Shown here piece by piece: positions 3,487 to 53,603 of a DNA stretch of 64,000 bases (its first letter is position 1; the number at the start of each line of letters is the position of its first letter). The position numbers and the translations under genes are program-made. This DNA comes from a virus, in IMG/VR virus record IMGVR_UViG_3300045988_149331, positions 36,686-100,685 of that record, one strand, 5' to 3'. The notes below the pieces were generated by a model. It was not told the DNA's origin and did not search any database. It was given only the letters and a program-made list of their open reading frames with translations.

Positions 3487-4296
3487 CTACACCTCCACCG
3501 CGTCAAAGTCAATATCAAATTTCTTGTACACAATTCGCAACTCCGGTACGCCGTTAATTGGCTTCTTCTTTTCGTCAATACGAGCGTTCAACGGCCAGCG
3601 CTTGAGTATGATGTCGTGCGCCCGCTGCACGCGCTCCTGGCGTTCGTATACGTCTTGGAGACCGCCGCCCTGGTTGGCTTCCTTGTTCATCTTACTCTGG
3701 AGAAGGAACCGCACGAACCGCGCGTAGACGATTCCCAGGTACATGCATTTCAACGAATAGTCGATGTCGCATTTCAACTCCAACTTTTCGTCAAAGTCCA
3801 GTTCCAGCGTCCGTAGCCCCTTGAAGACGATCAAGTGTGGAATACCGCCGTACTTGAAGCGCGGGCTGACGTCGGTACAACTCCAGTCGAAGGCGCTCTT
3901 GCCCATCGTTCCATACTCAAAATCGGTTTCCATGACCTCGCGATCAAACTCCTCAAAGAACTCGCTGAGTTCTTCCGGCGTTTTCAACGACAGCCCACAC
4001 TTGGCTTCACCGTCGATCGAGTAGAAGAAGTTGGCGATGTCGTCATCCATCACCACCACCGGGTGGTTCTTGCGGAGGTAGGTGTTCTTGCAGAAATTTA
4101 CCACGTAGCTGTAGCCGCGGTTCGAGGCCGGCAGCACAATCAGCCGCTCACGGGCGTGACCCGCTTCGACGTATTTTTCAACGTCCTCCTTTTCGACCAC
4201 AATATTGTAGTCAACGCCGCCCTTTTCCAACAGTTTAGTCGTGACGCACTTGGGGCGGTTCTTGGACACGACGAAGAATTGACAGTTCATACTCAA
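3487..4296 (-). CDS. GT-A-like (DxD) glycosyltransferase-like protein, paralog of 21202-22017
   Basis: N-terminal beta-strand FFVVSKNRP, DxD motif VVMDDDI, C-terminal KCDIDYSL..NQGGG..Y segment alignable with KEDFAVAC..NAAGG..Y of 21202-22017; ATGA overlap with upstream gene. Confidence 0.35.
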   Translation of the reverse strand: MSMNCQFFVVSKNRPKCVTTKLLEKGGVDYNIVVEKEDVEKYVEAGHARERLIVLPASNRGYSYVVNFCKNTYLRKNHPVVVMDDDIANFFYSIDGEAKCGLSLKTPEELSEFFEEFDREVMETDFEYGTMGKSAFDWSCTDVSPRFKYGGIPHLIVFKGLRTLELDFDEKLELKCDIDYSLKCMYLGIVYARFVRFLLQSKMNKEANQGGGLQDVYERQERVQRAHDIILKRWPLNARIDEKKKPINGVPELRIVYKKFDIDFDAVEV

Positions 4297-4973
4297 AAGG
4301 GTAATTCACCTTCGGACCATATTTCCTCGGGTGGGTTTTGTTCTATGAAACGTTGATATTTGTCTATCGTAGGCTCCAGCGACGGGTAGAACCTAAAGGC
4401 AAGTTCCCACTTGACGTCAAACATATCGTCGCACGGGACTTTGCGCTTCATCAACACATTTTCGTTGTTGTAGCACTGAATTGTGACTTGCTGACGGCCA
4501 CGCGAAGTGTACGAATAGGGAAAGTCGCGATAGTACTCAGCCAGCGAAACCGTATCTTGAACAACGTCGTGAATGAACTGATTGAAGGGGTGTCCCAGCC
4601 CCAACGGCGCCAATACGGTATAACCACGGTTGCGTCGTAGGAAACGACGCAAATGGTCGCGAAGCGTTTGTTCGGCGAAATTAAGCGTGTCAGTTCCGTA
4701 TTTAGTTCTGAGGTACGTATAGACGCTGGAGAGATTAAAGTCCTTGAAATGGTCGCCAAAATCGCTACAAATCGCATCTTCGAACCCAGTGTCGAAGACA
4801 TCCATCGTAATACCCATGAATTCATAGAGCGATCGCTGTTCTACAACGCGGTTTGGGTCGCTATCTACAGTAAGCACCCGAACGTCATATTCGGGTGCTA
4901 CTAAAACGTGACAAGCGCTCATCAGGAGATCACCCGCGTGAGGCTCGACACACAGGTACTTTATTTTTCCCAT
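4293..4973 (-). CDS. PIG-L/LmbE-like deacetylase-like protein
   Basis: N-terminus LCVEPHAGDLLMSACHVL..DVRVLTV resembles the (v)aHPDDe..gG..L...V.vv.lT signature of PIG-L family; overlaps both neighbours. Confidence 0.4.
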   Translation of the reverse strand: MGKIKYLCVEPHAGDLLMSACHVLVAPEYDVRVLTVDSDPNRVVEQRSLYEFMGITMDVFDTGFEDAICSDFGDHFKDFNLSSVYTYLRTKYGTDTLNFAEQTLRDHLRRFLRRNRGYTVLAPLGLGHPFNQFIHDVVQDTVSLAEYYRDFPYSYTSRGRQQVTIQCYNNENVLMKRKVPCDDMFDVKWELAFRFYPSLEPTIDKYQRFIEQNPPEEIWSEGELPF

Positions 4974-5920
4974 GGCCGCTTGTAGATTTTCTCAGCGCAG
5001 GGGCCGTCTTTCGACACGTCCTCAGCCATCTTCCGGATTTCCGGCGTGATAGGCGGCAGCGTTTGCTTACCCATTTTGTCAGGCAGGAAGCCGACGCGGA
5101 CGCTTACGTGCGTACACCCCTGACACGGGCGGAAGCGGCGGTCGTTGTTGTACAGCATGACACGGGCGGCGTGAAAGCGCGGGTGGTTCCACAGGTCTTC
5201 GATGGGCATGTCGTGGATGTTGGCGATTGGGTACTCACCGCGGAAGTCATCACAGCACAGACACACCTGGCCATTCCACCTCACGTCCAGTTCGCGGAAC
5301 GGGAAGGTGCACCGCTTGTTGTTGAACGAATCGTCAAGCGGGAAGGCCGCGCCGCAGTGGTTGGCCAGGCGACGTGTCATCTTGTTGGTGTCGTCGTGGG
5401 CGATAGGCGGCAGCAAGCAGATACGACGGCCCTGCTTGGGGTAGTAGTACGGAACGCCGGGTTCCAGCGTCACGACGTTGTACTTATCAACATCGATCTT
5501 CTCGACGAAATTCCAGTCGCCGTTGGCCGTGTAGCAGTCCACCAGAATATCGTTCATACCTGCTCCGAACAGCGCGTCGAGGTACGCCTCGGTGTCTTCA
5601 GCGTGGTTCATGGCGTAACCGTTACTGTACATATGAAACACAGCCTTCGGCAAGTGCTTGCGGAACGTGGCGACGATGTCGATGAAGGCAGGATTCAGCG
5701 TCGGTTCGCCGTGCATAGCGAACACGAACTTACAGTTCCAACCCACCCGCGCTACCTCCGAAGCAATACGCTCGGCCGTTTCGACGGTCATGAAATTCCA
5801 GGGCTTGGTCCCCTTTTCACGCATACCGTGTAAACCGCAGAACGAACAACCGAGGTTACAGCCCTCGGTAGGTTCAATCTGCATGGTAAACGGGGGGTCT
5901 TGTACGATTTTGTTTTTCAT
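4961..5920 (-). CDS. radical SAM enzyme with SPASM/twitch-like C-terminal Cys-rich domain
   Basis: CNLGCSFC (CX3CX2C) at aa 21-28, GEPTLNP SAM-binding motif, C-terminal C..GQVCLCCDD...CQGC cluster pattern. Confidence 0.8.
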   Translation of the reverse strand: MKNKIVQDPPFTMQIEPTEGCNLGCSFCGLHGMREKGTKPWNFMTVETAERIASEVARVGWNCKFVFAMHGEPTLNPAFIDIVATFRKHLPKAVFHMYSNGYAMNHAEDTEAYLDALFGAGMNDILVDCYTANGDWNFVEKIDVDKYNVVTLEPGVPYYYPKQGRRICLLPPIAHDDTNKMTRRLANHCGAAFPLDDSFNNKRCTFPFRELDVRWNGQVCLCCDDFRGEYPIANIHDMPIEDLWNHPRFHAARVMLYNNDRRFRPCQGCTHVSVRVGFLPDKMGKQTLPPITPEIRKMAEDVSKDGPCAEKIYKRPWEK

Positions 5921-6852
5921 TATTTTGTAACTTTAATGTTGAGTTTCACGTTCTTTAACTTTGGGTCTTTGAACTGACGCTTGACGGGCTTGGTGAAAGC
6001 GCGGGTTGCGGGGTCCCAATCGAAATTATCAGGCTTGTAATTAACCTGACACCGGCAGTAGGGGTGCGTCGGGTTAATCGTAGGGAGCCACTCTGCCGCC
6101 TTACGACCGATGTTGTTACCGTTAGCGATAAGGTCCGCCAAACGGAACAGTTTCGGTTTCGAGGTAGGGTCCTCGGGGTCTTCTAAGTACAACTCCCGGC
6201 ACTTAGCGCACGCGCCTGGATAGACGTCGAAATACACTTTGGCGTCAGGCCCGTGTTGCTTGAAAATACTTTCAGCACGGCCCACGTTGTAGGCTTCGTG
6301 CAGGAGATAGTACGCAATACGCAGCCAATCGCGTCCCCAGTCTTGGGTAAGGTTTCCCAGTTCGCTGGCTACATAGCGCGCCCCCTTACGGAGTTGAACG
6401 GCTTGAATGGCCTTATCTTTGATTTGCTGGCGTATAGCGGCCTGCTGACGGAAATTCGACTTGAGGATGGTGTTGCGTGTCCCGGTGACGATACGGTTGC
6501 CAAGCGATGTGATGTCGGTGTAGGCGCGGTTCTTGAGGTAATTGAGGGCGTTCTCTTCCTGTTCAGTGAGCGGTACAAAGTTTCCTGATTTCAAGAACTG
6601 AAGAAACTGTTTGTAGTTCATCTTCTTGGCGCGGGTATCGCCGATAGCCTCAGCCAAGATTCCAAACAGAAAGGCGTGTTCGATTATACCCTTAGAGTTC
6701 TTGTACTTATCGACGTTGACGCCTGACGCCACCAAGATGTCGATCTCCGACTGGGTCAGAAAATCCAATCCGACGTGCTTAGCAATAAACAGGTACTGCC
6801 AGCGCCGGAGAATACCGACCATGTCGTCTATTTGGCGGTTATTGAAAATCAT
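5920..6852 (-). CDS. Mu F / SPP1 gp7-like minor head (virion-internal) protein
   Basis: C-terminal NPTHPYCRCQV matches the HPxCRC signature of Phage_Mu_F family; 1-nt overlaps with both neighbours. Confidence 0.5.
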   Translation of the reverse strand: MIFNNRQIDDMVGILRRWQYLFIAKHVGLDFLTQSEIDILVASGVNVDKYKNSKGIIEHAFLFGILAEAIGDTRAKKMNYKQFLQFLKSGNFVPLTEQEENALNYLKNRAYTDITSLGNRIVTGTRNTILKSNFRQQAAIRQQIKDKAIQAVQLRKGARYVASELGNLTQDWGRDWLRIAYYLLHEAYNVGRAESIFKQHGPDAKVYFDVYPGACAKCRELYLEDPEDPTSKPKLFRLADLIANGNNIGRKAAEWLPTINPTHPYCRCQVNYKPDNFDWDPATRAFTKPVKRQFKDPKLKNVKLNIKVTK

Positions 6853-7490
6853 CAGTCTTCAGTGCTCCAAGAGCCGTCGTTTTTTAATTCCCTGGCTTTT
6901 GGTCCATCAGATACAGTCTTCTTGATACCATATTCCCCAGGGCGTTCGTTTTCTTCACTCCGTACCTTGTTCGCAGTTTCCGCCGCTTTTTGATACGAAC
7001 CACTCTTTACCTTCCGTAACAAACGAATGTCTTCTATCTTTATGGAATTTGGATATTTGCCCCCTATTTTGTTAACAAGTCCGTCTATTTTCACCTCAAA
7101 GCTATCGCCATCGCGGCTAACTATCTTCCCAACTGAATATGAATGATAACCGGAGCCGTTATTAACATGAACAATTACGACATCGCCATGGCTTAAATCG
7201 GAAGGTTCAACCTCGTGTCCTGAATTAAAATCCTCAACGGTGTACTGGTACAGTTTCTTGTTAGGTAATTTAATTGGCTTGAACTTAGGTTCTTTGTAAG
7301 GCATCCCAACGCGCCCTAATTTCCGATTTTCAGACGTGTCGGCGTATCGCCCGGTCTTCGAACGGGCTTTCTCCAACGCATCGCCGTCGGTTAGGTTTCC
7401 TTCAAAAGCACCTATGGCTTTACACAAGTGGTCGTGGCGATATTGATTGGCTTCATGAAATGCCCTCGTCACTTCATCTACTACTCCCAT
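6852..7490 (-). CDS. hypothetical protein with EKAR..Y.D...NRKLGRVG module and SH3/Tudor-like beta domain
   Basis: aa 40-65 LEKARSKTGRYADTSENRKLGRVGMPY matches aa 29-55 of the ART protein; C-terminal GDVVIVHV..YSVGKIVSRDGDSFEV beta-barrel-like repeat. Confidence 0.5.
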   Translation of the reverse strand: MGVVDEVTRAFHEANQYRHDHLCKAIGAFEGNLTDGDALEKARSKTGRYADTSENRKLGRVGMPYKEPKFKPIKLPNKKLYQYTVEDFNSGHEVEPSDLSHGDVVIVHVNNGSGYHSYSVGKIVSRDGDSFEVKIDGLVNKIGGKYPNSIKIEDIRLLRKVKSGSYQKAAETANKVRSEENERPGEYGIKKTVSDGPKARELKNDGSWSTED

Positions 7491-7993
7491 AATCTTACTC
7501 GTGATTCATGGCCGTGTTTAACGGCAATTCTACCGTTGTTAAGGTCGATTTCAACGCTCTTATCGGTAAGTGCAACAACTTTTCCAGGCTTATAACAAAA
7601 CCCATTTTCAGCGTTCCCCAACTTGACGATAACAGCTCTGTACTTGGTGAGTTCGGAAAAGTCTTTGATCTTGATGGCTTCTTCGTCAAACATCTTTTTC
7701 CAAAACCACTCGATATCAGGCCAGAGGCGAACCTCTTCGTTAACCCCTAACGACGCTGTAATCGGCGCACCATTGGGGAACAAATTCACCTCACACTTAC
7801 CATCACTGACGCGTGATAGCGTACCGATGTTATACCTCACCTTCCCCTTATCATCCTTCACGCGAACGATGACTCGTACAGGGTAAGGCGGTGTTACCTT
7901 CAACGCGCTGTTAGCAGCGATTGTTGTGCCGATATGCCAAATCTTCTCAGCCTTCGCTGCTGACACGGCCCAAATTATTTTTCTTTGGTCCAT
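7481..7993 (-). CDS. hypothetical protein, two tandem SH3/Tudor-like beta-barrel repeats
   Basis: Two internal repeats of pattern V.V......G..Y..G.v....d...E..L..G.......e.vRLW. Confidence 0.5.
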   Translation of the reverse strand: MDQRKIIWAVSAAKAEKIWHIGTTIAANSALKVTPPYPVRVIVRVKDDKGKVRYNIGTLSRVSDGKCEVNLFPNGAPITASLGVNEEVRLWPDIEWFWKKMFDEEAIKIKDFSELTKYRAVIVKLGNAENGFCYKPGKVVALTDKSVEIDLNNGRIAVKHGHESRVRLWE

Positions 7994-8165
7994 CTTCCTT
8001 TAATTCTTTTACCGCCGCAGCCGTAGCGTCGGCGATGTATTTTAGTACATCGCCTAACGCAGCGGCGTTGTTGGCGTTCCATTCGCGGATAAACCGATCT
8101 TCGTACTGAGTAACGGTGGGGAATGGCGACGGCAAAAAGTGGGTATGTTTGGCGTTGTAAGGCAT
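7947..8165 (-). CDS. hypothetical small protein
   Basis: 72-aa ORF whose ATG overlaps the ART gene stop (TAATG at 8163-8167); 3' end overlaps next gene by 47 nt, so uncertain. Confidence 0.3.
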   Translation of the reverse strand: MPYNAKHTHFLPSPFPTVTQYEDRFIREWNANNAAALGDVLKYIADATAAAVKELKEDGPKKNNLGRVSSEG

Positions 8166-9919
8166 TACTCTTGTTTGCTATCTTCCGGCAACCATTCCAT
8201 TAAGACACGATTTCCTTCAATCTTATGGACCTTATAATTTTGGTCTCGGCCAATTAAAAATTCCCCCTCCTCTCCTCCGTAAACCCCTACTACTGGAGCA
8301 ACCGGGCAACCCGCGGGAGCGATAATATCAAAATACATAGTCCCCTCGTCGTTGCTAATTTCAGGATAACATGTAGTGCTCATGAACGACTTATCGCTGA
8401 ACACCTCCCCCTCCTTGAGATTTTTAACGAAATTATCTGCATCGTTTTCAAACGTAAGTTTCCTGTATAAAACGATATTTTGTCCCACTTTATTTTGAGA
8501 AATAAACGTATCAATTCCGTTTATGAATTTATCCATTTTATCAGACGATACATCGACTTTGTTGCCGTAAAGGTATTTTCTCATTACAGCAAAGTCAAGA
8601 TCATCATCTTCGTCAAAATCGTCATCATGGTCTGCGGAATATAAAACAATAGCTTTTACTGCATCCGAATCGCTTTCGTCCATGAAATCCTCATAAGCGT
8701 CAACAATCTTATCAAAGAATTCAGTTGCATCGTCGCTGTTTAATCGTATGAATTTTTCGCCGTTTATGTCCAACCCACTTTTCCGTAAAGCCCATTTGTA
8801 CGCTCTATCGGCCTTTTTGAGAACTTTTTCATTCGCCTTGTCAGAGGGTAATCGCTCAATGTTTTTCGCAGTACTGTCGCCTGATAATGAAATATTAAAA
8901 CGTTCATTATCTGCTTCAAATTTCTTTTGTTCTTCTGCTTTTTCCCTTTTAACATCCTCGCTTTTTACCCAAAAAGCGATAGCGTCGTCTTTTGTGTCTT
9001 CAGGCACGATATTATTTCTTTTCAAGACATCAATCGCCTTTTTAGATAATTCTTCGGGGGTTAATTTATACTTTGAATACTGTTCGTCGGTCTTTCGTAA
9101 TTTACTCAAAAAGATGCCAGCTATCGTCTTTGGTGTATCGCTACCTCGTACTTGATCCAGCAAATCTTTTTCGAATTTCTCATCAACGGCATCTTCGTCT
9201 TTATTGTCGTCATCCTTTTCACTACCCTCCCTGGCGTCAGGATCGCCGAACTTGGACGCGGCTCCCTCGACGTCAGCGATCTCCTTCACCGTCGTGGTCT
9301 CGAAATTGTCAACATCGGCGTAGGGGTATTTGTCCACGCGGTAGCCTTCGCTGGTCTTGGTGACTACCAGATCGAAGCCGTCTTCGTCGCCGCCGACCTG
9401 CTTGATGAACGCGTGAGAAGCGTCTTCGACTCCAGCGTACTGCTCCAGGTCCTGGTCGTCCATCTGACGGAAGCCCATGGACTCAAACGAGGCCGTCGCC
9501 TTGGCGTCACCGTCAGCCAGGCCGTTACGCAACGAGGCGTCGCCCTTCTTGTTCTTGGCGCGAACGTTCACGCCGCGGCGTTCGAGTTCTGCGGTGGCCA
9601 CCTTGCGCATTTCAGCGTCAGCCGACGGATCGTTAGCCACTTTCACCAACGCCTCCTCCGAAGCCGAGCGGGCATGATTCTGGAGGCTGACGTTGCCTCC
9701 GGGAACGCCACCTTCACCCCCCTCAGCCGCGGGGTCTTTCTCCTTGGCTGCGTGACCGTACTCCTGACCCACACGTTGCAAGCGGCGGTTTTGAGCGTTG
9801 TCGGTGTATACACCGTGACGCGCTTTTTCGATTTCTACCTCTTCAGTTTCGGGGATGTTGACGAACCCCTTGAGGATTTGCTGTCGTTTTGCCTCACCGT
9901 AGTTGATAATCTCTTTCAT
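8165..9919 (-). CDS. C3/VIP2-type ADP-ribosyltransferase domain protein (MuF-associated toxin-like)
   Basis: C-terminal R-STS-ExE triad: VLYRKL, SFMSTT, GEEGEFLIG; long acidic linker; N-terminal shared modules. Confidence 0.75.
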   Translation of the reverse strand: MKEIINYGEAKRQQILKGFVNIPETEEVEIEKARHGVYTDNAQNRRLQRVGQEYGHAAKEKDPAAEGGEGGVPGGNVSLQNHARSASEEALVKVANDPSADAEMRKVATAELERRGVNVRAKNKKGDASLRNGLADGDAKATASFESMGFRQMDDQDLEQYAGVEDASHAFIKQVGGDEDGFDLVVTKTSEGYRVDKYPYADVDNFETTTVKEIADVEGAASKFGDPDAREGSEKDDDNKDEDAVDEKFEKDLLDQVRGSDTPKTIAGIFLSKLRKTDEQYSKYKLTPEELSKKAIDVLKRNNIVPEDTKDDAIAFWVKSEDVKREKAEEQKKFEADNERFNISLSGDSTAKNIERLPSDKANEKVLKKADRAYKWALRKSGLDINGEKFIRLNSDDATEFFDKIVDAYEDFMDESDSDAVKAIVLYSADHDDDFDEDDDLDFAVMRKYLYGNKVDVSSDKMDKFINGIDTFISQNKVGQNIVLYRKLTFENDADNFVKNLKEGEVFSDKSFMSTTCYPEISNDEGTMYFDIIAPAGCPVAPVVGVYGGEEGEFLIGRDQNYKVHKIEGNRVLMEWLPEDSKQE

Positions 9920-9954
9920 CGTATTGTTGTTTTATATGTTTCTTTTCCTACTAC

Positions 9955-9985
9955 AAAAGGTAATGAAAATTCTCCAAACCGCCAA
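9955..9985 (-). promoter_or_regulatory. Bacteroidota-type promoter (TTG-N20-TACCTTTT) upstream of ART gene
   Basis: Minus strand reads TTG(9985-9983) gcggtttggagaattttcat TACCTTTT(9962-9955), 36 nt before ATG 9919. Confidence 0.4.
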
Positions 9986-9994
9986 TAGTTTTTG

Positions 9995-10552
9995 TTAAAA
10001 TTTTACACCAAAATCCACCGTATATCCCCAGTTATCATTAACCCTCATGGCTGAAGCACCTACCATGAACCGCTGGCGGAAATCGGCTCCGGCGGAGAAC
10101 TTTTGTGTACCAAAGTCCAACGATGTGCCTATTTGGGCATAGCCTTGGATGAATGGTATGCGGGTTTGCACCGTGGTACGTTCTATTTCACGCACTCGTA
10201 TCAGAGGATTGATAATTGACGTAGCTTCAGTGATGGCGTTGCGGTTCACAGTGGCGTTCACCTTGAACGTTCCAATACTGTCGTTTGAAAAGTCCAGCGT
10301 GTAGTGCTTTGTAGCAAGATAATCAGCCAGCAACGCCGCGGTGTCGATTTCCCCTGGAAGGTAGATGGTGGTATCGCGTACGACGATATACGGCACCGGA
10401 ACCTTCACTGTATCGCGGTATTCGACCGTGTCGTGCTTTGTATGCCACCTTTCAACGACTTTCGGGGGTTCGGGGATATAACTACCCCGCCCAAGAAAGA
10501 ACGCGAAAATTAGGGCCGCTACAACGATAATTATGGATGCCGCAGTTTTCAT
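9995..10552 (-). CDS. membrane-anchored protein with OMP-like C-terminal beta-signal
   Basis: N-terminal TM/signal MKTAASIIIVVAALIFAFFLG; beta-rich body; ends ...GYTVDFGVKF (terminal Phe). Confidence 0.5.
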   Translation of the reverse strand: MKTAASIIIVVAALIFAFFLGRGSYIPEPPKVVERWHTKHDTVEYRDTVKVPVPYIVVRDTTIYLPGEIDTAALLADYLATKHYTLDFSNDSIGTFKVNATVNRNAITEATSIINPLIRVREIERTTVQTRIPFIQGYAQIGTSLDFGTQKFSAGADFRQRFMVGASAMRVNDNWGYTVDFGVKF

Positions 10553-11611: not shown

Positions 11612-11616
11612 GGCTG

Positions 11617-13245: not shown

Positions 13246-13257
13246 AATAGGAAACGT

Positions 13258-13515
13258 TTAGCGTGAATATAGGTAGGCGGTACGGTCGTCCCAAACGAAA
13301 TTGAAACTCATATCCCCTTGAGGATATTCCGTGATGGTAATGCCGTTGGCGGTTGTTTCACGTTCGATACGCCAGCCCGGCTCTCCCTGGCCTGTGCCGA
13401 TAGGGGCATATCCGCGATACACGGTCCCCTCAGTGGAAGCGTCGATGATAGGCTTCGGCATGGCCTCCGAAAGCAACTGCACGATGGGTGCAGTATTCTT
13501 CTCGTTACTCGTCAT
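13258..13515 (-). CDS. hypothetical protein
   Basis: 85-aa co-directional ORF overlapping portal stop by 11 nt. Confidence 0.45.
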   Translation of the reverse strand: MTSNEKNTAPIVQLLSEAMPKPIIDASTEGTVYRGYAPIGTGQGEPGWRIERETTANGITITEYPQGDMSFNFVWDDRTAYLYSR

Positions 13516-15271: not shown

Positions 15272-15308
15272 AATGTTTTTACGCGATTTATGTACCTATA
15301 ATTGGCTA

Positions 15309-15632
15309 TCAACCCAACATTTTCAAAATGTCGTTGCAGGCCGTTTTCCTGATTATCAACGCTTGATGAACGATATCTCCCCACACCGCCAACTGATGAC
15401 CGCGCCATGAGTAGTAGTCGGTTTGGTCATCGTACGAACCTTGCCACTCGCCTTCGCTGCGTATAGTAGCCACCAAACGGCGAAATGCTCGCTGTTCGTC
15501 GGTAGTGAGGGGTGATATAAAAGTGCCGACGACTACTAATCGTGCGGCACTCGTTGTTAGATCATCGGCTAACGTTTGAAAGTTAATGCCCATGAACTCA
15601 CCTGTCTCTAATGGGGTATGAAAAGTTATCAT
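15309..15632 (-). CDS. hypothetical protein
   Basis: Co-directional ORF, 4-nt overlap with upstream gene. Confidence 0.45.
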   Translation of the reverse strand: MITFHTPLETGEFMGINFQTLADDLTTSAARLVVVGTFISPLTTDEQRAFRRLVATIRSEGEWQGSYDDQTDYYSWRGHQLAVWGDIVHQALIIRKTACNDILKMLG

Positions 15633-16639
15633 TCGCCAACCAATTTTACAGTTCGTGGTTCAAAAGTAGAGCGTTGCTTACCTTCACCGATGCGCATCTT
15701 CCAGTATTTTTGATATTCACACAACCACATCTCGATCTGGTGAAGGGTTATATTGCCGTGAGGCGTTGTGTAATATCCTGCTTCGAGTTTGTGCCAGTGT
15801 AGGTACGGAAAATCTCCAAATGTCGCCAACGCCACCTGCGCTTCATCACGCAGACGATAGATACCGTCAATTTGACGTTTCAACGACGGGAATATTAACC
15901 GCAACCCAATCGACGCCCCAGGCCCCACGTTAGTGTAGTCATCCTGAGTGAAACGCATGAAACGCCGATATGTATATCGCGGTATATAGGTGAAATCTTG
16001 ATAGAATTCGTGAGCGATGAATGCAGCCGATGACGGAAGCCCCTGAAGGAACTTGATGATCTGTTCAGGAGTTTGGGCCGTAAATACCATCTTGATGAGT
16101 TCACCCAAGCGACGGTGTAACGTAGGCACTACCAGATGGGTGTAACAGTAATCACGCGGTTTACCCGGCGTGGCCATGGAATTGATGAGATATGCCGTGG
16201 TGTAGGGGTTGTTCCCCGAAGCGCGGTACGACGTTATCATCTCTGCAAAAGCGTCTTCGTCGTAGCTGTCGTAATCTGGAATACCAGCGCCCCAGCCATA
16301 CTTATCGCGAGCGTATTCAAAAGTACTGGGGTTGTTGAAATACCGGAACACCATCATCTTCCACACCAAGCTGGCTAACGACAATGAATCATCCAACAGA
16401 ATATTTCGAATTTGCCACTGGGAATTTCGATCCAGTTCGCGGTACACGTTAGTGAACTTGTAGTCGCGCAAAATAGGGTCTTCAGTCCAGGGGCGTGGTT
16501 GGTGATCGATGAAACGTCGTTTCCAGATCATTTGCCGCTCAAACATCGTGCGAAAGAACTCCGTGCGGTGTTCGTCGCTCACGTCAAGCGTATCAGATGG
16601 GAGTTTGTCACTCCAAGAATAGTGATCAAAGTTTGCCAT
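15629..16639 (-). CDS. alpha-glutamyl/putrescinyl-thymine pyrophosphorylase (aGPT-Pplase)-like DNA base hypermodification protein (candidate)
   Basis: N-terminal MIWKRRFIDHQPRPWTEDPILRDYKFTNVYRELDRNSQW matches my recollection of the R..W.RR....PWT.DPIL...KFTNV(F/Y)R.LDR.SQ signature of this family; needs HMM confirmation. Confidence 0.45.
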   Translation of the reverse strand: MANFDHYSWSDKLPSDTLDVSDEHRTEFFRTMFERQMIWKRRFIDHQPRPWTEDPILRDYKFTNVYRELDRNSQWQIRNILLDDSLSLASLVWKMMVFRYFNNPSTFEYARDKYGWGAGIPDYDSYDEDAFAEMITSYRASGNNPYTTAYLINSMATPGKPRDYCYTHLVVPTLHRRLGELIKMVFTAQTPEQIIKFLQGLPSSAAFIAHEFYQDFTYIPRYTYRRFMRFTQDDYTNVGPGASIGLRLIFPSLKRQIDGIYRLRDEAQVALATFGDFPYLHWHKLEAGYYTTPHGNITLHQIEMWLCEYQKYWKMRIGEGKQRSTFEPRTVKLVGE

Positions 16640-16940
16640 TTTGTTTACAATAGCTTCGTATCAGCAATTCACGGCGCGCTTCAGAGGTCTTTCCAGCCAG
16701 CCGGAACAACGTAGCATCAGGCAAGTTCTTCAGTGGTCGTTTAGCTGCATTTACAAGACGCGCTTCGTCTATAACGAGGTTTACCCTTATCCGCCGCCCG
16801 CGGATCAATTTGACGGACTCTGCAGCGAGCAGTGGACAATAATCGTTACCGTGTAACGAACGTACAATAAACGTCATCGAACCCCAAACCTCAGGGTCTG
16901 CAACGACGTCGCCTATTTTGAAATATCTCCATCGGTCCAT
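16626..16940 (-). CDS. hypothetical protein
   Basis: Co-directional ORF, 14-nt overlap with downstream gene. Confidence 0.45.
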   Translation of the reverse strand: MDRWRYFKIGDVVADPEVWGSMTFIVRSLHGNDYCPLLAAESVKLIRGRRIRVNLVIDEARLVNAAKRPLKNLPDATLFRLAGKTSEARRELLIRSYCKQNGKL

Positions 16941-17026
16941 ATAACTAAAAAACGTTGGCCCCGAAACGCTTACTGAATCGAGGCCGCGGTCCTAACTAAC
17001 CTTGGAAAATGGAAACAGAAAAGAAA

Positions 17027-17698
17027 CTAAAACCCGAACACCGTCAGCTGTCGAGGCGACAATTGATAGCGTTCGTTGTCGGAAAGATTAGTCTCGAGAA
17101 TTTCACACGCCTTGATGTCGGTAGCGACATTGGCGTACTCACGGACCTTATCGTTGTACTCCTGGCGGCACTTACGCATTTCGGGAGTAACAGGGTTCTC
17201 CTGCTCTTCGCCGGCAATGAGCGATCCTGCAACTTTAGGACCTTCACAGAGGTCGCATGCCTGCCACGAGAAGATGCGGAACGGAAAATCCATCTTGATC
17301 TCCGCAGTCCACCAGGGCGGAACGGTCTCGGTAGGAGCCCCGCCGCAGTCTTCGAGTTTGCTCTCGATTTCAGCCGTCAGGACTTGGAGTTTAGCGTTCA
17401 GCGGCGGAAGAATATCGGCCTTCAGTTTAGCCTTGATTTCCTTGCCCAGTTTGCCGAACTTGATGTTAGAATCGTAGCTGATGGCGTTCATGATGTCCGA
17501 TTTCTCGATCTCGCCCTGAAGAGCCACGTCGCTATCGCCGGACTCAGCCTTTTCGATAGCCCCGGCCATCTTCTCGAAAACGTTATCAGCCTTTTCGACC
17601 TTTTCCTCAGGGTCTTCGGAAACCGGAGCGAAGCCCTTCAGCATGTGCTCTTGACGCTCAGCGCGAACGCCAAGAATGATATCACGAATGTTTTCCAT
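17027..17698 (-). CDS. hypothetical acidic protein
   Basis: 223-aa co-directional ORF; no motif recognised. Confidence 0.5.
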   Translation of the reverse strand: MENIRDIILGVRAERQEHMLKGFAPVSEDPEEKVEKADNVFEKMAGAIEKAESGDSDVALQGEIEKSDIMNAISYDSNIKFGKLGKEIKAKLKADILPPLNAKLQVLTAEIESKLEDCGGAPTETVPPWWTAEIKMDFPFRIFSWQACDLCEGPKVAGSLIAGEEQENPVTPEMRKCRQEYNDKVREYANVATDIKACEILETNLSDNERYQLSPRQLTVFGF

Positions 17699-17882
17699 CG
17701 CTCACTTCGGTTTTTGCGGCTCGCGCCTTTACGTAATTAACCCACGCCCAGTGTGCCACCACGCCCGCCGTGAACGAGCCAATAGCCACCAACGTGTGAA
17801 TGATCTTCGCCTCATGGGCGTACACTACCGCAGCCACGACAAGCGCGACAACGATAATAAGAATCCACATCCATTTCTTCAT
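17682..17882 (-). CDS. small two-TM membrane protein
   Basis: WILIIVVALVVAAVVYA and LVAIGSFTAGVVAHWAWV hydrophobic segments. Confidence 0.4.
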   Translation of the reverse strand: MKKWMWILIIVVALVVAAVVYAHEAKIIHTLVAIGSFTAGVVAHWAWVNYVKARAAKTEVSDGKHS

Positions 17883-17901
17883 ACTACTATAATTTTGGTT
17901 G

Positions 17902-18894
17902 TTACTTAATCAACATTCCGTAGAAATCCTCAAGTGTGTATGCCTTTTTATAGTTGTAAGAATCCTTCGTATTGGCCACTTCTTCAGCCATTGCTACGAG
18001 CAGTTCTTCTTGGCGCGGCCCGTACACTGAAGGCGACAGCCAGGTTAATTTTACGTTGAACAGAATCTGACCTATCTCGTCAGTGCTTAACGGCGCACCC
18101 AAGAATTTCTCGAACTTGGACTGAATCCACAGCGCCAGTTTCGTCGAGACATATTCTTGGAAATAAGTCGGCGATACGAGTCGGCCGTTGAATTCTTGTT
18201 TCAGCGATTCGATAAAACGGTTGAACGCCTTATCACCAAATCCGCGCCGCACCTTGGGGATATTATCCGACTTATCACCCATCAGCACCTTGTACAGCAA
18301 CACCTCCATCGCTTCAGTATTGAGGACCTGGATGTCGGCATCCAACAGATCGTTCCACAGCGATTCTTTACCGGGGAAACAGTAAAATTTCATGAACTTG
18401 GAGTTGTAGTTGAACACCGAAACCGTTGGCGTTATCAACTGGCGAATATCGCTATCGGCCGTGAGGATGACTGTTTCTTCGCCGGGGAGTTCGTCCAGCG
18501 CAAAGGCCCACAACATCATCAGGTCGTCGCCTTCAGCGCCCGGTACGCGCGTAACGATCAACCCGCGTTTACGCAGCAGGCTTTCCAGTTCGCCCAACAC
18601 CTCGATGAACGCATCACTCCACGGCTCCTTTACCTTGGTGAGTGCGTACTTGTAGTCGTCATATACGTCACGACGCCACGAATGAGAGTCAATCACCACT
18701 ATCACGCGATGAACGTTATCGCCAAAACGGCGTACCGCGGCGCAAAGATTCATCACGCACTTACGGATCAGCACCTGGCGTTTTTCCGGGTCATCCAAGA
18801 CCTCTGTTAAATCTTGACCCCGGTAGTACGTGGACCACACTGAAAACGACAGGTGGTACAGGAAATTGCCGTCAAATACGAGATTAATCTTCAT
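17902..18894 (-). CDS. 5'-3' exonuclease / flap endonuclease (T4 RNase H-like, PIN-like fold)
   Basis: Acidic-residue motifs LVFDGN, IDSHSWRRDVYDDYK, GAEGDDLM, TADSDIRQL, MGDKSDNIP. Confidence 0.75.
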   Translation of the reverse strand: MKINLVFDGNFLYHLSFSVWSTYYRGQDLTEVLDDPEKRQVLIRKCVMNLCAAVRRFGDNVHRVIVVIDSHSWRRDVYDDYKYALTKVKEPWSDAFIEVLGELESLLRKRGLIVTRVPGAEGDDLMMLWAFALDELPGEETVILTADSDIRQLITPTVSVFNYNSKFMKFYCFPGKESLWNDLLDADIQVLNTEAMEVLLYKVLMGDKSDNIPKVRRGFGDKAFNRFIESLKQEFNGRLVSPTYFQEYVSTKLALWIQSKFEKFLGAPLSTDEIGQILFNVKLTWLSPSVYGPRQEELLVAMAEEVANTKDSYNYKKAYTLEDFYGMLIK

Positions 18895-19718
18895 CGCGCT
18901 AACTGGTTAAGGTTGGTATTTTCGGCGGTGAGTCCCGCCTTGGAGATAGTAACGTTGCGGCCGTCTTCCATCCCCTGTCGCATCGCTTGGTAGCTACCAA
19001 TGTGCTCCGGGCGGGCCTTGCCTAATTTAGGATATTTCTCAGCCAGGTAGTCGTCGAGTTTCTTGTCGGTACGCAACAACAGCGCGTTGACCTGGACCTG
19101 GGCTTGAAGTTCGCGGTCGCGCTCCTCTTTGAGTTTCTGCTGAACACCTTTGGCTGCGCCAGCAAGGTACGACCGCAAGAACGTACCGCGGTGCATTTTC
19201 TTTTCGCCAACGAAAAGCCGCATCACCGCTTGAGTGTCGTCGTTACGGTATTCCTCGTAACGCTTCAACGCCAACTTATAAAGATTGGCGGCCAATACGT
19301 CGAACAGCCACTTTACGACCTGGATGTTCTGCGGCTCACCGATGACGATGTAACGACGGCGGTTTTCCCATACCTCACGACCATTACGATTCGTACGATA
19401 AACGTGCGTATTACTAATCAGCACATAACAGAAATTGTACTTACAAATTCCGTACAACAGGAGCTGGTCCCACGAACCGCCACACTTACGCTGCCAGTTG
19501 TCGCCCAAACGTTCTTCGATAACGTCAGTCTTTTGCTCGTTGTCGGCAACCGATTCAACGTCAGCCATCGAAAGGTTGTACTGAGTTAAGAGATTCTGAA
19601 TTTTGGTAGCGGCATTCTGTGCTTCGGCTTCGGAGTTGATAGCCTTGGCGCCTTCGTACAGACGCTGCAGTTTCTTCAGTTTTGAGAGGATCAAGTTGAG
19701 ATCTTGAGTCTTTTCCAT
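18891..19718 (-). CDS. DUF2786-like domain protein
   Basis: N-terminal ILSKLKKLQRLYEGAKAINSEAEAQNAATKIQNLL resembles DUF2786. Start moved to ATG 19718 because the track start 19781 is the TTG of the promoter -33 box. Confidence 0.5.
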   Translation of the reverse strand: MEKTQDLNLILSKLKKLQRLYEGAKAINSEAEAQNAATKIQNLLTQYNLSMADVESVADNEQKTDVIEERLGDNWQRKCGGSWDQLLLYGICKYNFCYVLISNTHVYRTNRNGREVWENRRRYIVIGEPQNIQVVKWLFDVLAANLYKLALKRYEEYRNDDTQAVMRLFVGEKKMHRGTFLRSYLAGAAKGVQQKLKEERDRELQAQVQVNALLLRTDKKLDDYLAEKYPKLGKARPEHIGSYQAMRQGMEDGRNVTISKAGLTAENTNLNQLAR

Positions 19719-19750
19719 AACCAATTTTGTTTTACGATTCTTTTCAAGAG

Positions 19751-19799
19751 CGAAGGTACGTTGAAATTCCAAAATCTCCAAGAGAATTTCAAGAAATTT
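19751..19799 (-). promoter_or_regulatory. Bacteroidota-type promoter, conserved repeat copy A
   Basis: Minus strand: AAATTTCTTGAAATTCTC TTG(19781-19779) N20 TACCTTCG(19758-19751); near-identical to copy at 33054-33100. Confidence 0.55.
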
Positions 19800-20073
19800 A
19801 ACAATCCATCACTAAATTTCCCGCCAACTCCAACTCATACAACCGTTCAGCATCAGGCTTGGCGTAACAGAATATCAACTTTCCACCGCCCGCAGCCCGC
19901 AACGCTTTACGATACGTCGCCTTGATGCGGGCCAACTCTTCGCTTCGGTAAAAATCGTAGTCGCTTACACACAACTCCCACCACCGCTCTTGCCGCGACG
20001 CCCAGGCTATGACTCCTGGGCGTTCGGCTTCAATCCGCTTTACAGCAGCTAATAACAGCGCGTCGTGTTTCAT
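19798..20073 (-). CDS. hypothetical protein
   Basis: 91-aa ORF, 4-nt overlap with upstream gene. Confidence 0.45.
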   Translation of the reverse strand: MKHDALLLAAVKRIEAERPGVIAWASRQERWWELCVSDYDFYRSEELARIKATYRKALRAAGGGKLIFCYAKPDAERLYELELAGNLVMDC

Positions 20074-20657
20074 AACGTTTCGTCGATAGACTGCGCCAAC
20101 TCAGCCAACAGCCTTACGTGTACGCGCTCGTCGGCGATAATCTTGTTGAGGAGTTGAACCGCCAACGTAGAAGTAGTGGTCGGCGTAGGGTTGCCTGCTT
20201 GGATGCGCTGGATGAGTTTTTCGTACTCAGCGATGGTGTCCTGCTCGGCGCGAATATTGATCTGGATGGCTTCAGCCGCGCTTTCGGTCGTTATGTCCAC
20301 TTTGGCTGCCGAAAACACAGGCTTCGATACCGCGTGACCCAGATGGTGAATGAAGTCGCCTAATCGGTCGTAGTGCTTCATCTCGGTGAGGGCGATACCC
20401 AGGAACGTTTCGCCAATCTGATCGAAAAGCATCCGCTGTTGGGTGTATTGGATGATGGCGGTGAGTTCGGACGTTCCGGTAATTCCGGCGTAGACTTTGT
20501 AGAACCACTCGGCCGGAACGCCGTCGTCGGCTTTAGCCTTGGAGATGTCGGGATAGTCAATCGCGTGGTCGGCGTAACGCATCGACTCTACCAGCGCGTC
20601 GGCCATGATTTCGACGTTGTCCTGCTTGGCGGGTTGGTGTACGAGAATCGTTTTCAT
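20070..20657 (-). CDS. ferritin-fold di-metal carboxylate protein (Mn-catalase/CotJC-like)
   Basis: Four-helix pattern E...ExxH...E...ExxH: SELTAIIQYTQQ, LTEMKH, RAEQDTIAEYE, ADERVH. Confidence 0.5.
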   Translation of the reverse strand: MKTILVHQPAKQDNVEIMADALVESMRYADHAIDYPDISKAKADDGVPAEWFYKVYAGITGTSELTAIIQYTQQRMLFDQIGETFLGIALTEMKHYDRLGDFIHHLGHAVSKPVFSAAKVDITTESAAEAIQINIRAEQDTIAEYEKLIQRIQAGNPTPTTTSTLAVQLLNKIIADERVHVRLLAELAQSIDETL

Positions 20658-20659
20658 GA

Positions 20660-21205
20660 CTATTTGGTTTCAGGTTCTTGGCTCTTGACGGTCGATCCCC
20701 ATCCTGCTTCGCCGCGAGCGCTGGGCGTGAGTTCTTCGACGAGTGTAGGTTCAATCAACGGCGCAGGCACAATCACCAGCTGAGCAACGACGTCGCCCTT
20801 CTTGTACGCCTTACATTCGTACGACAGCTCCCGCATTTTGAAGTCGGCGATAGTCCCTAAGACGTTGGAGAACAACACCGCCAAACACCGCGACATACGC
20901 TGCCACAGCGTGGGCATGTGATAGATCTTTTTGTAGCGTACCAGCATCTCGCCACGGTACCCCGGGTCGATAATACCCGGCGCGTTACACATCACCAGGT
21001 CCATCTTCGACACGCGCGAGTTGGGGACCAGCAACCCGCTGTACCCTTTGGGAATTTCAACGGCGATTCCCGTCTGGTACTCGATGAAATCTTCGGTTTC
21101 GCGTACTCCAACGGCTACCAGGTCCAAGCCGTTATCCTCGCCATCGGCGTGGGCATACGCCGGCAACGTGGCGTTGGGGTTGAGTTTCTTGAATTTTACG
21201 TTCAT
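20660..21205 (-). CDS. dut: dUTP diphosphatase (trimeric dUTPase) with about 30-aa insertion
   Basis: Motifs DNGLDL, GIIDPGYRGE, GDVVAQLV, RGEAGWGST; insertion between motifs III and IV. Confidence 0.85.
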   Translation of the reverse strand: MNVKFKKLNPNATLPAYAHADGEDNGLDLVAVGVRETEDFIEYQTGIAVEIPKGYSGLLVPNSRVSKMDLVMCNAPGIIDPGYRGEMLVRYKKIYHMPTLWQRMSRCLAVLFSNVLGTIADFKMRELSYECKAYKKGDVVAQLVIVPAPLIEPTLVEELTPSARGEAGWGSTVKSQEPETK

Positions 21206-22017
21206 TTCTTGTATCCTTTTAAGTGTATTTTGACCTCGATCATCTCACGGTCCTTCATTTCACCACCCCAGTTGGTACACTTTTTGGTACGGAGGGTGAT
21301 GTACTCGGGGAACGCTTCTCTTAAACGTTGTGATTCGGCGTTGGAGTTCTCGATCGTACGATAAATCGAACAACCACCAGCGGCGTTGGCTCCCGTCATT
21401 TTGTCGAACGAATACTGATACGAGACGATATTATCCAACCCCGCGCGGCGTAATCCACACGCCACGGCGAAATCCTCCTTTATGGGCCAATCGCTGAACC
21501 TGACAGGCTGACTTAGATACTGGGCGATATTGAGGCCCCAAATGGAGAAGAACCGCCCGTTTATTTGTACGTCGTGTTCCTTGTCGCGGTTGAACGGACG
21601 GTATGAAAGCGCAGCCACGGCGTAGGTGTCTAACTGCTCAGCCACCCAGTCGAACATCATCTGGTAGATGTATTCCTGCGCCTCGACGGTGAAATTGTCG
21701 TTGTTTACGACCACAGGGGTCTTGGCATCGTCTAAACGCAACGAGAAAGACACGTTATCGTCTAAGAAAAAGACTCCTCCAAATCCCCTATCAACGGCCT
21801 CTACAACAATATAGTCCCGTATGTCCCCCACGCCGCGACACGCCGTACTGTATTCCTCGATACTGGCTACTTTTCCACCCCAGTTGCGCTGGTGAGCCGC
21901 CAACTCGCCGGGGTGACAGAATATGTGGACGCGCTTCAACGCTTCAGGCGTCAACCGTTGAAGAGTTTTTTGGCGGTCAACACGACCTCGTGTGAATAAG
22001 GCTATCAGAGTTTTCAT
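21202..22017 (-). CDS. GT-A-like (DxD) glycosyltransferase-like protein, paralog of 3487-4296
   Basis: LIALFTRGR, FFLDDNV DxD-like motif, KEDFAVAC..NAAGG..Y alignable with 3487-4296; ATGA overlap with dut. Confidence 0.35.
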   Translation of the reverse strand: MKTLIALFTRGRVDRQKTLQRLTPEALKRVHIFCHPGELAAHQRNWGGKVASIEEYSTACRGVGDIRDYIVVEAVDRGFGGVFFLDDNVSFSLRLDDAKTPVVVNNDNFTVEAQEYIYQMMFDWVAEQLDTYAVAALSYRPFNRDKEHDVQINGRFFSIWGLNIAQYLSQPVRFSDWPIKEDFAVACGLRRAGLDNIVSYQYSFDKMTGANAAGGCSIYRTIENSNAESQRLREAFPEYITLRTKKCTNWGGEMKDREMIEVKIHLKGYKK

Positions 22018-26840: not shown

Positions 26841-26922
26841 CACCCGAGTTGCCGTTCCTATTTACACTCCCGAAACTGCCGACAATGGGCGAACTGCCAC
26901 AACATTCCGTCGGGTGAAAAAG

Positions 26923-53589: not shown

Positions 53590-53603
53590 ACGATTTTGTT
53601 TTA

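Follow-up and report, generated by a model that had tools for sequence, protein, structure and literature searches.

A candidate thymidine hypermodification system with predicted glycosylation of 5-hydroxymethyluracil in an uncultured phage lineage

Results

Modification genes of the window and the genome that carries them

The stretch of DNA analyzed here, called the window throughout, comprises 64 kb (positions 36,686-100,685) of the IMG/VR viral record IMGVR_UViG_3300045988_149331 and holds a set of genes predicted to introduce 5-hydroxymethyluracil (5-hmU) into phage DNA and to glycosylate it there. Its genes lie on the minus strand almost throughout. A preliminary description had assigned nine open reading frames (ORFs) to a multi-step pathway of pyrimidine hypermodification and glycosylation, and all nine were found on the minus strand where it had placed them. 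With the profile matches of each, they are as follows.

3487-4296, minus strand: TAGT-1, a GT-A glycosyltransferase (PF20691, 5.3e-13), its gene translationally coupled to the LmbE-like gene
4293-4973, minus strand: LmbE/PIG-L-superfamily protein with a variant active site (PHAGD…GHPFN), recognized with a remote-homolog profile
4961-5920, minus strand: radical SAM (rSAM)/SPASM (twitch-like) enzyme (Radical_SAM 1.8e-15, SPASM 2.6e-12)
15629-16639, minus strand: HMUDK_hel protein, all-helical and stand-alone (PF18723, 3.9e-51; 174.5 bits against a cut-off of 25)
20660-21205, minus strand: dUTPase, trimeric type with an insertion (Pfam dUTPase 2.3e-9; NCBIfam dut 3e-20, under its cut-off)
21202-22017, minus strand: TAGT-2, a GT-A glycosyltransferase (PF20691, 1.1e-12), its gene overlapping the dUTPase gene by 4 nt
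52930-53637, minus strand: YfbR-like HD 5′-deoxynucleotidase (Pfam YfbR-like 1.4e-13, HD_3 6e-7; NCBIfam 5′-deoxynucleotidase 9e-9, under its cut-off)
58889-60115, minus strand: ThyA-fold dUMP hydroxymethylase, a predicted 5-hydroxymethyl-dUMP (5-hmdUMP) synthase of 408 aa with a C-terminal extension (Pfam Thymidylat_synt 8.5e-23)
20070-20657, minus strand: ferritin/rubrerythrin-like di-metal four-helix-bundle protein (weak matches to Pfam Ferritin, 1.6e-7, and Rubrerythrin, 4.5e-5; PDB bacterioferritin 1e-3)

No GenBank phage matched the window in a search for near-identical DNA, and exact look-ups placed its proteins on many metagenomic contigs of 96-101 kb. The whole genome circle of about 100 kb was examined by way of a close relative, IMG/VR contig 3300045988_166522 (100,165 bp), two overlapping loci of which (L077 and L086) together span everything beyond the window. 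The portal protein is closest to its counterparts in the cultured Chryseobacterium phage MA9V-3 (42% identity, 1e-126) and in Herelleviridae (SPO1-like phages). MA9V-3 is the nearest cultured relative, and its host suggests that the lineage may infect Bacteroidota.

Predicted supply of 5-hydroxymethyl-dUMP

The ThyA homolog had been described as a divergent ThyA fold with a uracil-type specificity residue, and this holds in both parts: the protein matches Thymidylat_synt and has an Asn at the position of ThyA N177. Its closest phage relatives, at 46-50% identity over the catalytic core, are the SP-10 dUMP hydroxymethylase, SPO1 gp29, the CP-51 enzyme and the M6/PaMx11 group, and in phmmer comparisons the enzyme of the SP10-like phage Nachito (1e-49) and PaMx11 gp51 (4e-39) scored best, with canonical ThyA far poorer. 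The catalytic Cys146, Asp169 (in the motif RSND) and Asn177 (E. coli numbering) are all retained. The residue aligned to the uracil determinant Asn177 is an Asp in the CMP hydroxymethylase MilA, and T4 dCMP hydroxymethylase likewise has an Asp there. A D169N change is the signature of 5-hydroxy-dCMP synthases (PMC13326640); in contrast to those enzymes (RB69, DLP3 and RL38J1), the window protein lacks D169N and has Asp169 together with Asn177, a pair kept in every lineage ortholog examined in which the motif was found. The retention of Asp169 makes 5-hydroxy-dCMP synthase activity unlikely. A 'KD[FL]PCN' insertion with Asn147 is common to the window protein, PaMx11 gp51 and the Nachito enzyme, where the ThyA of E. 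coli and of MA9V-3 has 'A(P/A)CH', and these signatures are invariant across lineage orthologs down to 41-48% identity. Position 143, considered as a marker of hydroxymethyl versus methyl transfer, was dropped because the insertion makes the alignment ambiguous. We conclude that the ThyA homolog is an enzyme of the dUMP hydroxymethylase clade, predicted to yield 5-hmdUMP.

Within the lineage this gene has a history of its own. In a comparison with loci L164-L183 it is 100% identical in contig 153922, 88% identical in contig 166522 and about 70% identical in most others, and in the relatives at about 70% the major capsid protein and TAGT-2 are 94-99% identical to those of the window. Such a pattern suggests that the ThyA-like gene has been exchanged in mosaic fashion inside the clade.

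Two further enzymes may shape the nucleotide pool. The dUTPase call is supported by its Pfam match, and all five dUTPase motifs are recognizable by eye. The HD hydrolase does belong to the 5′-deoxynucleotidase-like family to which it had been assigned, but its proposed start at 53589 is an internal ATG, and gene callers take a GTG at 53637. An HD gene adjoins the hydroxymethylase gene in PaMx11 as well; a phmmer comparison of the two HD proteins detected no similarity. The predicted role of the HD nucleotidase is to clear dTMP or other dNMPs from the pool.

An HMUDK_hel protein in a genome without recognizable kinase or transferase genes

Known thymidine hypermodification, as in phages M6, ViI, PaMx11, SP10, PhiW-14 and SH-Ab 15599, employs a dUMP hydroxymethylase, a 5-hmdU DNA kinase (5-HMUDK) and an amino-acid:DNA transferase (AADT, or aGPT-Pplase2), followed by tailoring by pyridoxal phosphate (PLP), rSAM, flavin adenine dinucleotide (FAD) or acetyltransferase enzymes (PMC5889632, PMC8989533, PMC13458397). 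In this route the P-loop kinase phosphorylates the hydroxymethyl group, and the transferase displaces the phosphate. The HMUDK_hel protein of the window has relatives in just such phages: tblastn matched it to ViI-like, M6-like and SP10-like phages, PaMx11 and SH-Ab 15599, all known to hypermodify thymidine. Its PaMx11 homolog, gp50, directly follows gp49, a proven P-loop 5-HMUDK, and precedes the hydroxymethylase and HD genes, and the homolog in Bacillus phage Nachito is annotated as 'aGPT-pyrophosphorylase clade 1'. In SP10 gp186 an N-terminal kinase is fused to a C-terminal aG/PT-PPlase domain (Table 3, Lee et al. 2018), a fusion that probably gave the Pfam family its name, and by synteny with PaMx11 the stand-alone homolog in M6 would be gp55, which was not required for the glycine adduct in the published in vitro reconstitution. 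A Walker A motif or P-loop was looked for in the window protein and is absent. HMUDK_hel is a highly conserved core gene of the lineage, and the family at large numbers 700 homologs, the best 120 of which are single-domain proteins. An AF2 model (pLDDT 88) gave weak Foldseek matches, the best structurally sensible ones being the AADT PaMx11 gp46 (8z2m, TM about 0.4) and helix-hairpin-helix (HhH) glycosylases. The label 'aGPT-pyrophosphorylase-like' in the preliminary description is the older name of PF18723 and is correct as such; the role of post-replicative substitution attached to it is unsupported, since M6 gp55 was dispensable in that reconstitution and the clade is not known to have transferase activity.

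The enzymes that act beside this family elsewhere were sought with PaMx11 gp49, the Nachito kinase and PaMx11 gp46 as phmmer queries against six-frame ORFs of the window, its flanks and the remaining ~36 kb of the genome. Neither a P-loop 5-HMUDK nor an AADT was matched in any of the three. In a Pfam sweep of 86 unannotated proteins, to which PaMx11 gp49 and gp46 were added as positive controls, AAA_33/Zeta_toxin was matched by the gp49 control only and PF18724 (ADDT) by the gp46 control only. The earlier observation that the window holds no 5-hmdU DNA kinase thus extends to the whole ~100-kb genome, and the suggestion that the pathway continues outside the window fell away, no further recognizable modification genes having been found in the part beyond it. 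As neither a kinase nor an AADT is recognizable in the genome, pyrophosphorolytic substitution is without basis here. Pfam scans of all large ORFs and of the 86 unannotated proteins likewise found no TET/JBP enzyme, C5-methyltransferase, dCMP hydroxymethylase or alpha/beta-glucosyltransferase (alpha/beta-GT). Without a TET enzyme, C5-methyltransferase or dCMP hydroxymethylase, 5-hmU is the sole hydroxymethylpyrimidine available.

Three candidates for the missing kinase were set aside. Neither of the upstream ORFs 16626-16940 and 17027-17698 has a P-loop. The sole unassigned protein with a Walker A motif (1694-3451, 585 aa) starts with a leader of cargo type and is shared with MA9V-3, a phage without hmU genes. 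It has in common with an ADP-ribosyltransferase (8165-9919, 584 aa, with a C-terminal ADPrib_exo_Tox domain) an N-terminal segment of about 100 aa (34% identity, '…NRRLQRVG…'), possibly a leader that directs ejected cargo proteins to the capsid, and we conclude that the 1694-3451 product is a virion-cargo-type protein. A similar motif, 'ENRKLGRVG', occurs in the 212-aa ORF 6852-7490.

These results bear on a reading in which the lineage keeps to the classical route: a non-homologous or diverged kinase would phosphorylate 5-hmU, HMUDK_hel would be a group transferase like its AADT paralog, and the TAGTs, the LmbE-like protein and the rSAM enzyme would decorate the appended group. In every characterized phage HMUDK_hel accompanies 5-HMUDK, to the point of fusion in SP10, its best structurally sensible Foldseek match is an AADT, and many ORFs of the genome are still unannotated. 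Yet none of the 86 unannotated proteins matched AAA_33/Zeta or ADDT in a sweep in which the controls did, the one unassigned P-loop protein is of cargo type, the M6 clade-1 homolog is dispensable for transfer in vitro, and a kinase fusion is found in none of the best 120 of the 700 HMUDK_hel homologs. We consider a hidden classical route quite improbable.

Two diverged glycosyltransferases of the TAGT family

Both glycosyltransferases of the window match PF20691 above its cut-off of 27.5 bits and over nearly the full 205 profile positions (TAGT-1, 49.8 bits, positions 3-203; TAGT-2, 48.8 bits, positions 3-205). TAGT-1 additionally matches phrog_842, 'beta-glucosyl-HMC-alpha-glucosyltransferase' (1.1e-16), and had no tblastn match among GenBank phages. 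Read by eye, possible counterparts of the GT-A signature R…DDD…EDY/F are R14, 'MDDDI' and 'DIDY' in TAGT-1 and R10/R12, 'LDDN' and 'KEDF' in TAGT-2. They had been introduced as two paralogous GT-A-like proteins with a DxD motif; both do belong to the TAGT family of DNA glycosyltransferases, but 'paralogous' overstates a deeply diverged pair between which pairwise BLAST detects no similarity. The family includes a T6 enzyme reported to act on glucosyl-5-hydroxymethylcytosine and is a sister group to GT2 enzymes with non-DNA acceptors (PMC13216743); it also takes in TET-associated 5-hydroxymethylcytosine (5-hmC) glycosyltransferases, the active-site motifs of which align with those of the base-J glucosyltransferase (JGT; bioRxiv 10.1101/2023.12.21.572611). 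No association of a TAGT with TET/5mYOX or alpha/beta-GT was found in this genome; the partners are the dUMP hydroxymethylase and HMUDK_hel.

The last point could also be read as a sign that DNA is not the acceptor. The glycosyltransferases might act on polymers of the host envelope, as prophage TarP does on wall teichoic acid, to exclude superinfecting phages or to mask receptors, and have no connection with the hmU genes; phage GT-A DNA glycosyltransferases structurally resemble TarP (bioRxiv 10.1101/2023.12.21.572611), and neither a TET nor an alpha/beta-GT partner is present. But the TAGT proteins are small, with no membrane-associated features noticed, their genes are tightly coupled to those for HMUDK_hel and dUTPase in a lytic-type genome, and across the lineage they co-vary with the hydroxymethylase. 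An envelope target is therefore, in our view, very improbable.

The LmbE-like protein, the radical SAM enzyme and the ferritin-like protein

Searched directly against Pfam, PHROGs and NCBIfam, the LmbE-like protein of the window has no match, and a PDB profile search with its close homologs was empty. A word-indexed search recovered 11 homologs and an exhaustive profile search 87 representative clusters. An alignment of 55 sequences has the consensus 'PHSDDA … GxGHPxH … YRDxPHSYK', 17 of the 55 members individually match Pfam PIG-L (PF02585; best 1.4e-16), and the family profile finds Dbv21 (1e-15), the teicoplanin deacetylase Orf2* (1e-13) and diacetylchitobiose deacetylase in the PDB. The catalytic pattern of LmbE/PIG-L de-N-acetylases is H-x-D-D, with zinc ligands and the general base, together with H-x-x-H. 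By analogy with MshB we take D14 of this consensus to be the general base and H131 to be a zinc ligand. D14 is present in 50 and H131 in 51 of the 55 aligned sequences; in the window protein they are replaced by G and N, respectively, and the same pair of replacements recurs in the homolog P0013, which is 36% identical to the window copy. Of the proposed PIG-L-like deacetylase, superfamily membership is thus upheld through the family profile, but two near-invariant catalytic residues are replaced; the active site appears to be a conserved variant, and deacetylase activity is uncertain.

The identification of 4961-5920 as a radical SAM/SPASM enzyme stands, with both Pfam domains above their cut-offs and the CxxxCxxC motif at residues 21-28 (C21-x3-C25-x2-C28). 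In NCBIfam it matches generic maturases, and rSAM/SPASM enzymes are typically peptide maturases. A relationship to the hypermodification rSAMs M6 gp53 and SP10 gp185 was considered and rejected, the proteins being unrelated. For the ferritin-fold protein, proposed as a further tailoring enzyme, the weak Ferritin/Rubrerythrin match supports the fold, but linkage to the other genes is by adjacency in the window's own clade only, and in a relative (L201) the ortholog adjoins NrdD rather than a TAGT. Its membership of the system is doubtful.

Linkage of the post-replicative genes across relatives

Related loci were found with a 10-sequence sub-alignment of the LmbE-like family. In two proteins of this family the window's neighboring genes are fused, as Radical_SAM+SPASM::LmbE-like in P0015 and as LmbE-like::TAGT in P0022. 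The N-terminal half of P0015 is an ortholog of the window rSAM (46% identity, 1e-100), the C-terminal half of P0022 is an ortholog of TAGT-1 (52% identity, 2e-97), and the LmbE-like domains of the fusions are about 27% identical to the window protein (about 1e-25). The position of the LmbE-like gene is constant in 35 IMG/VR loci, in the order MuF-like gene, rSAM (about 23 of 35), LmbE-like gene, recognizable TAGT, separate or fused (about 11 of 35), and P585. Variants of this cassette carry an FkbM-type methyltransferase (L105 and L106) or an N6_N4 methyltransferase (L015). In relatives whose cassette has no TAGT (L109, L113, L118, L120, L108, L125 and L015) a conserved protein of about 483 aa (MKIFIADFQIAKYGGIVEYV…) stands in its place, after the LmbE-like gene. 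It has a GT4-like N-terminus and sub-threshold Pfam matches to GT-B families (Glyco_transf_4/Glycos_transf_1), and a PDB profile search with it was negative. This protein may be a GT-B enzyme of a new DNA glycosyltransferase family, an assignment we make tentatively.

Two relatives connect the cassette with HMUDK_hel. In L201 a TAGT-2-type gene directly follows HMUDK_hel, and in L202 the order is HMUDK_hel, rSAM/SPASM, TAGT, the last again an ortholog of TAGT-2. The L202 rSAM is an ortholog of the cassette rSAM of the window (57% identity, 2e-134), and the LmbE-like gene of L202 directly follows the MuF-like gene. That the rSAM gene lies between HMUDK_hel and TAGT here and in the cassette elsewhere indicates that the same rSAM moves between two loci. 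A hydroxymethylase-type ThyA is present on the same divergent contigs as the cassette. MA9V-3 offers the converse case. It has the backbone in common with the lineage, including the portal (1e-126), the MuF-like protein (4e-59), P585, DnaE, SbcCD and helicases, and has no homologs of HMUDK_hel, the LmbE-like protein, TAGT or rSAM; its ThyA is canonical. In MA9V-3 (PV245944.1; L199, 45868-48854) folE and queE flank thyA, an arrangement suggestive of DNA modification of the 7-deazaguanine type where the lineage has its hmU system. The MA9V-3 record annotates a tmRNA gene and a tRNA-Gln and leaves nearly all proteins unannotated.

The 310-aa protein 5920-6852 was considered as a pathway member and rejected, being conserved in MA9V-3. 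It has no Pfam match, its L201 ortholog matches Pfam InPase (PF18823), and its CxxC…HPYCRC signature is one that we take to be that of SPP1 gp7/MuF-like proteins. In two relatives (L003 and L006, both 5532-7532) this MuF-like protein is 666 aa long and contains an intein with a DUF559 endonuclease.

The genes of the system are thus conserved together in a diverged lineage, fused in some of its members and jointly absent from MA9V-3, and their co-occurrence, which the preliminary description had taken to be meaningful, is not a matter of chance. By comparative genomics, the five post-replicative genes are shown to be functionally linked.

The same map admits a reading in which the DNA carries plain 5-hmU, as in SPO1, and the cassette of TAGT-1, LmbE-like protein and rSAM glycosylates and cross-links virion proteins or ejected cargo. 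The cassette is invariably flanked by the MuF-like gene on one side and by that of the cargo-type protein P585 on the other, with an ADP-ribosyltransferase and proteins with the common N-terminal leader as neighbors; rSAM/SPASM enzymes mostly mature peptides, and the NCBIfam matches of this one are generic maturases; and the TAGTs have GT2 enzymes with non-DNA acceptors as their sister group. Such a role for the cassette would leave the rSAM ortholog between HMUDK_hel and TAGT in L202, and the TAGT directly after HMUDK_hel in L201, hard to accommodate. MA9V-3, moreover, retains the MuF-like protein, P585 and portal yet is without the cassette and the hmU genes alike, the TAGT-2 gene overlaps the dUTPase gene, and both glycosyltransferases exceed the gathering threshold of a DNA glycosyltransferase family. 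We regard modification of virion proteins as unlikely, while keeping it in view.

Mobile elements and other features of the lineage

The lineage is heavily colonized by mobile endonucleases and inteins. A DnaE-type replicative polymerase gene (53604-58887, minus strand) is divided into two ORFs, 57184-58887 with the PHP/N-terminal part and 53604-56474 with the finger/HhH part. It is split by a GIY-YIG/NUMOD3 homing-endonuclease gene (56444-57196), and its downstream part contains an intein with an HNH endonuclease. In relatives DnaE is intact (1186 aa, L012), carries the intein only (1452 aa, L014) or is split at other points (L010). A 906-aa ORF (22037-24757, minus strand) contains a PI-SceI-like intein with Hint and LAGLIDADG domains. 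Free-standing GIY-YIG/NUMOD3 genes lie at 51226-51993 and 56444-57196 of the window and at 10664-11398 of L114, the latter inserted between the LmbE-like and putative GT-B genes. A lone tRNA-Gln (anticodon TTG; 26922-26994, minus strand) has a counterpart in the tRNA-Gln of MA9V-3. In the 199-kb record IMGVR_UViG_3300029572_000001 (L019/L076/L081, L089/L090, L149/L151 and L166/L187) every marker gene occurs twice, about 99.3 kb apart; the record seems to consist of two copies of the ~100-kb genome joined head to tail, which would reflect either a concatemer made in assembly or a circularly permuted genome.

Discussion

We judge the system to be real, coherent and uncharacterized, with its chemistry inferred. 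Our reading, to which we give a probability of about 0.6, is that it represents a new type of thymidine hypermodification in which 5-hmU, once replicated into DNA, receives a sugar that is subsequently tailored. Of the multi-step pathway first proposed, the core (a start at 5-hmdUMP, a glycosyl or amino-sugar end, and a course off the kinase/aGPT-Pplase route) is borne out by family memberships and comparative linkage, whereas several of its role assignments are not.

We propose the following order of events. The dUTPase would supply dUMP and keep dUTP out of DNA, the ThyA-like enzyme would convert dUMP to 5-hmdUMP, and the HD nucleotidase would probably help to deplete dTMP, so that 5-hmdU would be polymerized instead of some or all T. 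A GT-A enzyme of the TAGT family would then glycosylate the hydroxymethyl oxygen, much as kinetoplastid JGT does in making base J. The first sugar is probably an N-acetyl-hexosamine, to be de-N-acetylated or otherwise processed, because the TAGT is paired with an LmbE/PIG-L-family protein. In MshA/MshB, BshA/BshB, PIG-A/PIG-L, BtrM/BtrD and the teicoplanin/Dbv21 enzymes a glycosyltransferase and an LmbE-type deacetylase typically operate as a pair, GlcNAc being attached first and then converted to GlcN. The rSAM/SPASM enzyme may tailor the sugar or the sugar-base link, and the second, very different TAGT may add a further sugar or serve a different subset of sites. HMUDK_hel, glycosylase-like and helical, would probably recognize, flip or present 5-hmU in duplex DNA to the post-replicative enzymes. 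A fuller version of the proposal is possible and is put forward tentatively: the lineage, a widespread one, would replace thymine with O-glycosylated 5-hmU, a base-J-like modification bearing an rSAM-remodeled, hexosamine-derived sugar, made independently of a kinase and with HMUDK_hel as the hmU-recognition partner of the TAGTs.

Several points weigh against a glycosylated 5-hmU. The lineage is uncultured and known from sequence alone. TAGT-1, the LmbE-like protein and the rSAM are encoded inside a head-morphogenesis/cargo region, with the MuF-like protein, the ADP-ribosyltransferase and P585. The LmbE-like protein of the window is without the predicted general base and one predicted zinc ligand and may not be a deacetylase, and in Foldseek its AF2 model (pLDDT 70) matched no LmbE fold significantly, the matches obtained being weak, generic Rossmann ones (E > 1e-3). 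The HMUDK_hel/clade-1 family is not known to have a function in any system, and Foldseek found no significant match for its model. No genes for sugar-nucleotide biosynthesis were found, which leaves the nature of the sugar purely conjectural. Finally, a non-homologous kinase or transferase may sit among the many unannotated ORFs.

A full-text literature search found no description of a phage hmU hypermodification that combines a glycosyltransferase, a deacetylase and a radical SAM enzyme; the paper it returned does not mention radical SAM and deals with a different pathway. In a 2024 survey glycosylated hmU, as base J, is entered for kinetoplastids only, and the entries for phages are hmU-derived amino and polyamine adducts and dihydroxypentyl-U. 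If the fuller version of our proposal is true, a glycosylated thymine derivative of this kind would be seen for the first time in a virus, a radical SAM enzyme would for the first time be found to work on a sugar linked to DNA, and the clade-1 aGPT-Pplase (HMUDK_hel) family would have its first functional context. The hmU-specific glycosyltransferases, the DNA-sugar deacetylase-like protein and the rSAM would be candidate tools for DNA glyco-engineering and sequencing chemistry. For a phage lineage that is abundant in metagenomes, the system also points to resistance against defences based on restriction, CRISPR or glycosylases, and may explain difficulties in sequencing and cloning such genomes. 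Variation of the cassette among TAGT, putative GT-B, FkbM-type methyltransferase and N6/N4 methyltransferase suggests an arms-race diversification of glycans on DNA.

Among known systems, the pairing of GlcNAc transferases with LmbE enzymes is similar in that a glycosyltransferase gene is adjacent or fused to an LmbE-family gene and in the profile matches to Dbv21 and Orf2*. It differs in that the acceptor here would be a DNA base, in that the partner is a GT-A/TAGT enzyme, and in that the Asp general base and one of the metal-binding His residues of the consensus are replaced in the window copy. With the thymidine hypermodification phages the system has in common a dUMP hydroxymethylase of the same clade, dUTPase and HD enzymes, HMUDK_hel, a post-replicative logic and rSAM tailoring. 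Unlike them, the window genome has no 5-HMUDK, AADT or PLP, FAD and acetyltransferase enzymes, and its rSAM is unrelated to M6 gp53; two TAGTs and the LmbE-like protein take the place of those enzymes. The 5-hmC glycosylation of phages, by the T-even alpha/beta-GT and T6 TAGT enzymes or by GT-A enzymes with TET/5mYOX (PMC13216743, PMC8256090, bioRxiv 10.1101/2023.12.21.572611), resembles it in the PF20691 family and in the predicted attachment of sugar to hydroxymethyl-pyrimidines of DNA, at times with two glycosyltransferases acting in turn. Here, by contrast, the predicted base is uracil, and TET, C5-methyltransferase, dCMP hydroxymethylase and alpha/beta-GT were not found. A survey of GT-A and GT-B enzymes in metagenomic phages noted GT-A contigs associated with ThyS and does not mention deacetylase or radical SAM partners (bioRxiv 10.1101/2023.12.21.572611). 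Closest in predicted product class, an O-glycosylated 5-hmU in DNA, is kinetoplastid base J (JBP1/2 and JGT), and according to the same preprint the GT-A active-site motifs of JGT are common to phage TAGT-like enzymes (bioRxiv 10.1101/2023.12.21.572611). No TET/JBP-family match, and hence no JBP-type thymidine dioxygenase, appeared in any Pfam scan; unlike base J, which arises by oxidation of T in DNA, the hmU of this lineage would be made before replication by a ThyA homolog, and deacetylase-like and rSAM tailoring are predicted to follow. Known phage thymidine hypermodifications are amino-acid or polyamine adducts formed via a phosphorylated intermediate, and known phage DNA glycosylation falls on cytosine derivatives. 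The system described here would join both, being hmU-based, kinase-independent and glycosylating, and would extend base-J-type chemistry to viruses.

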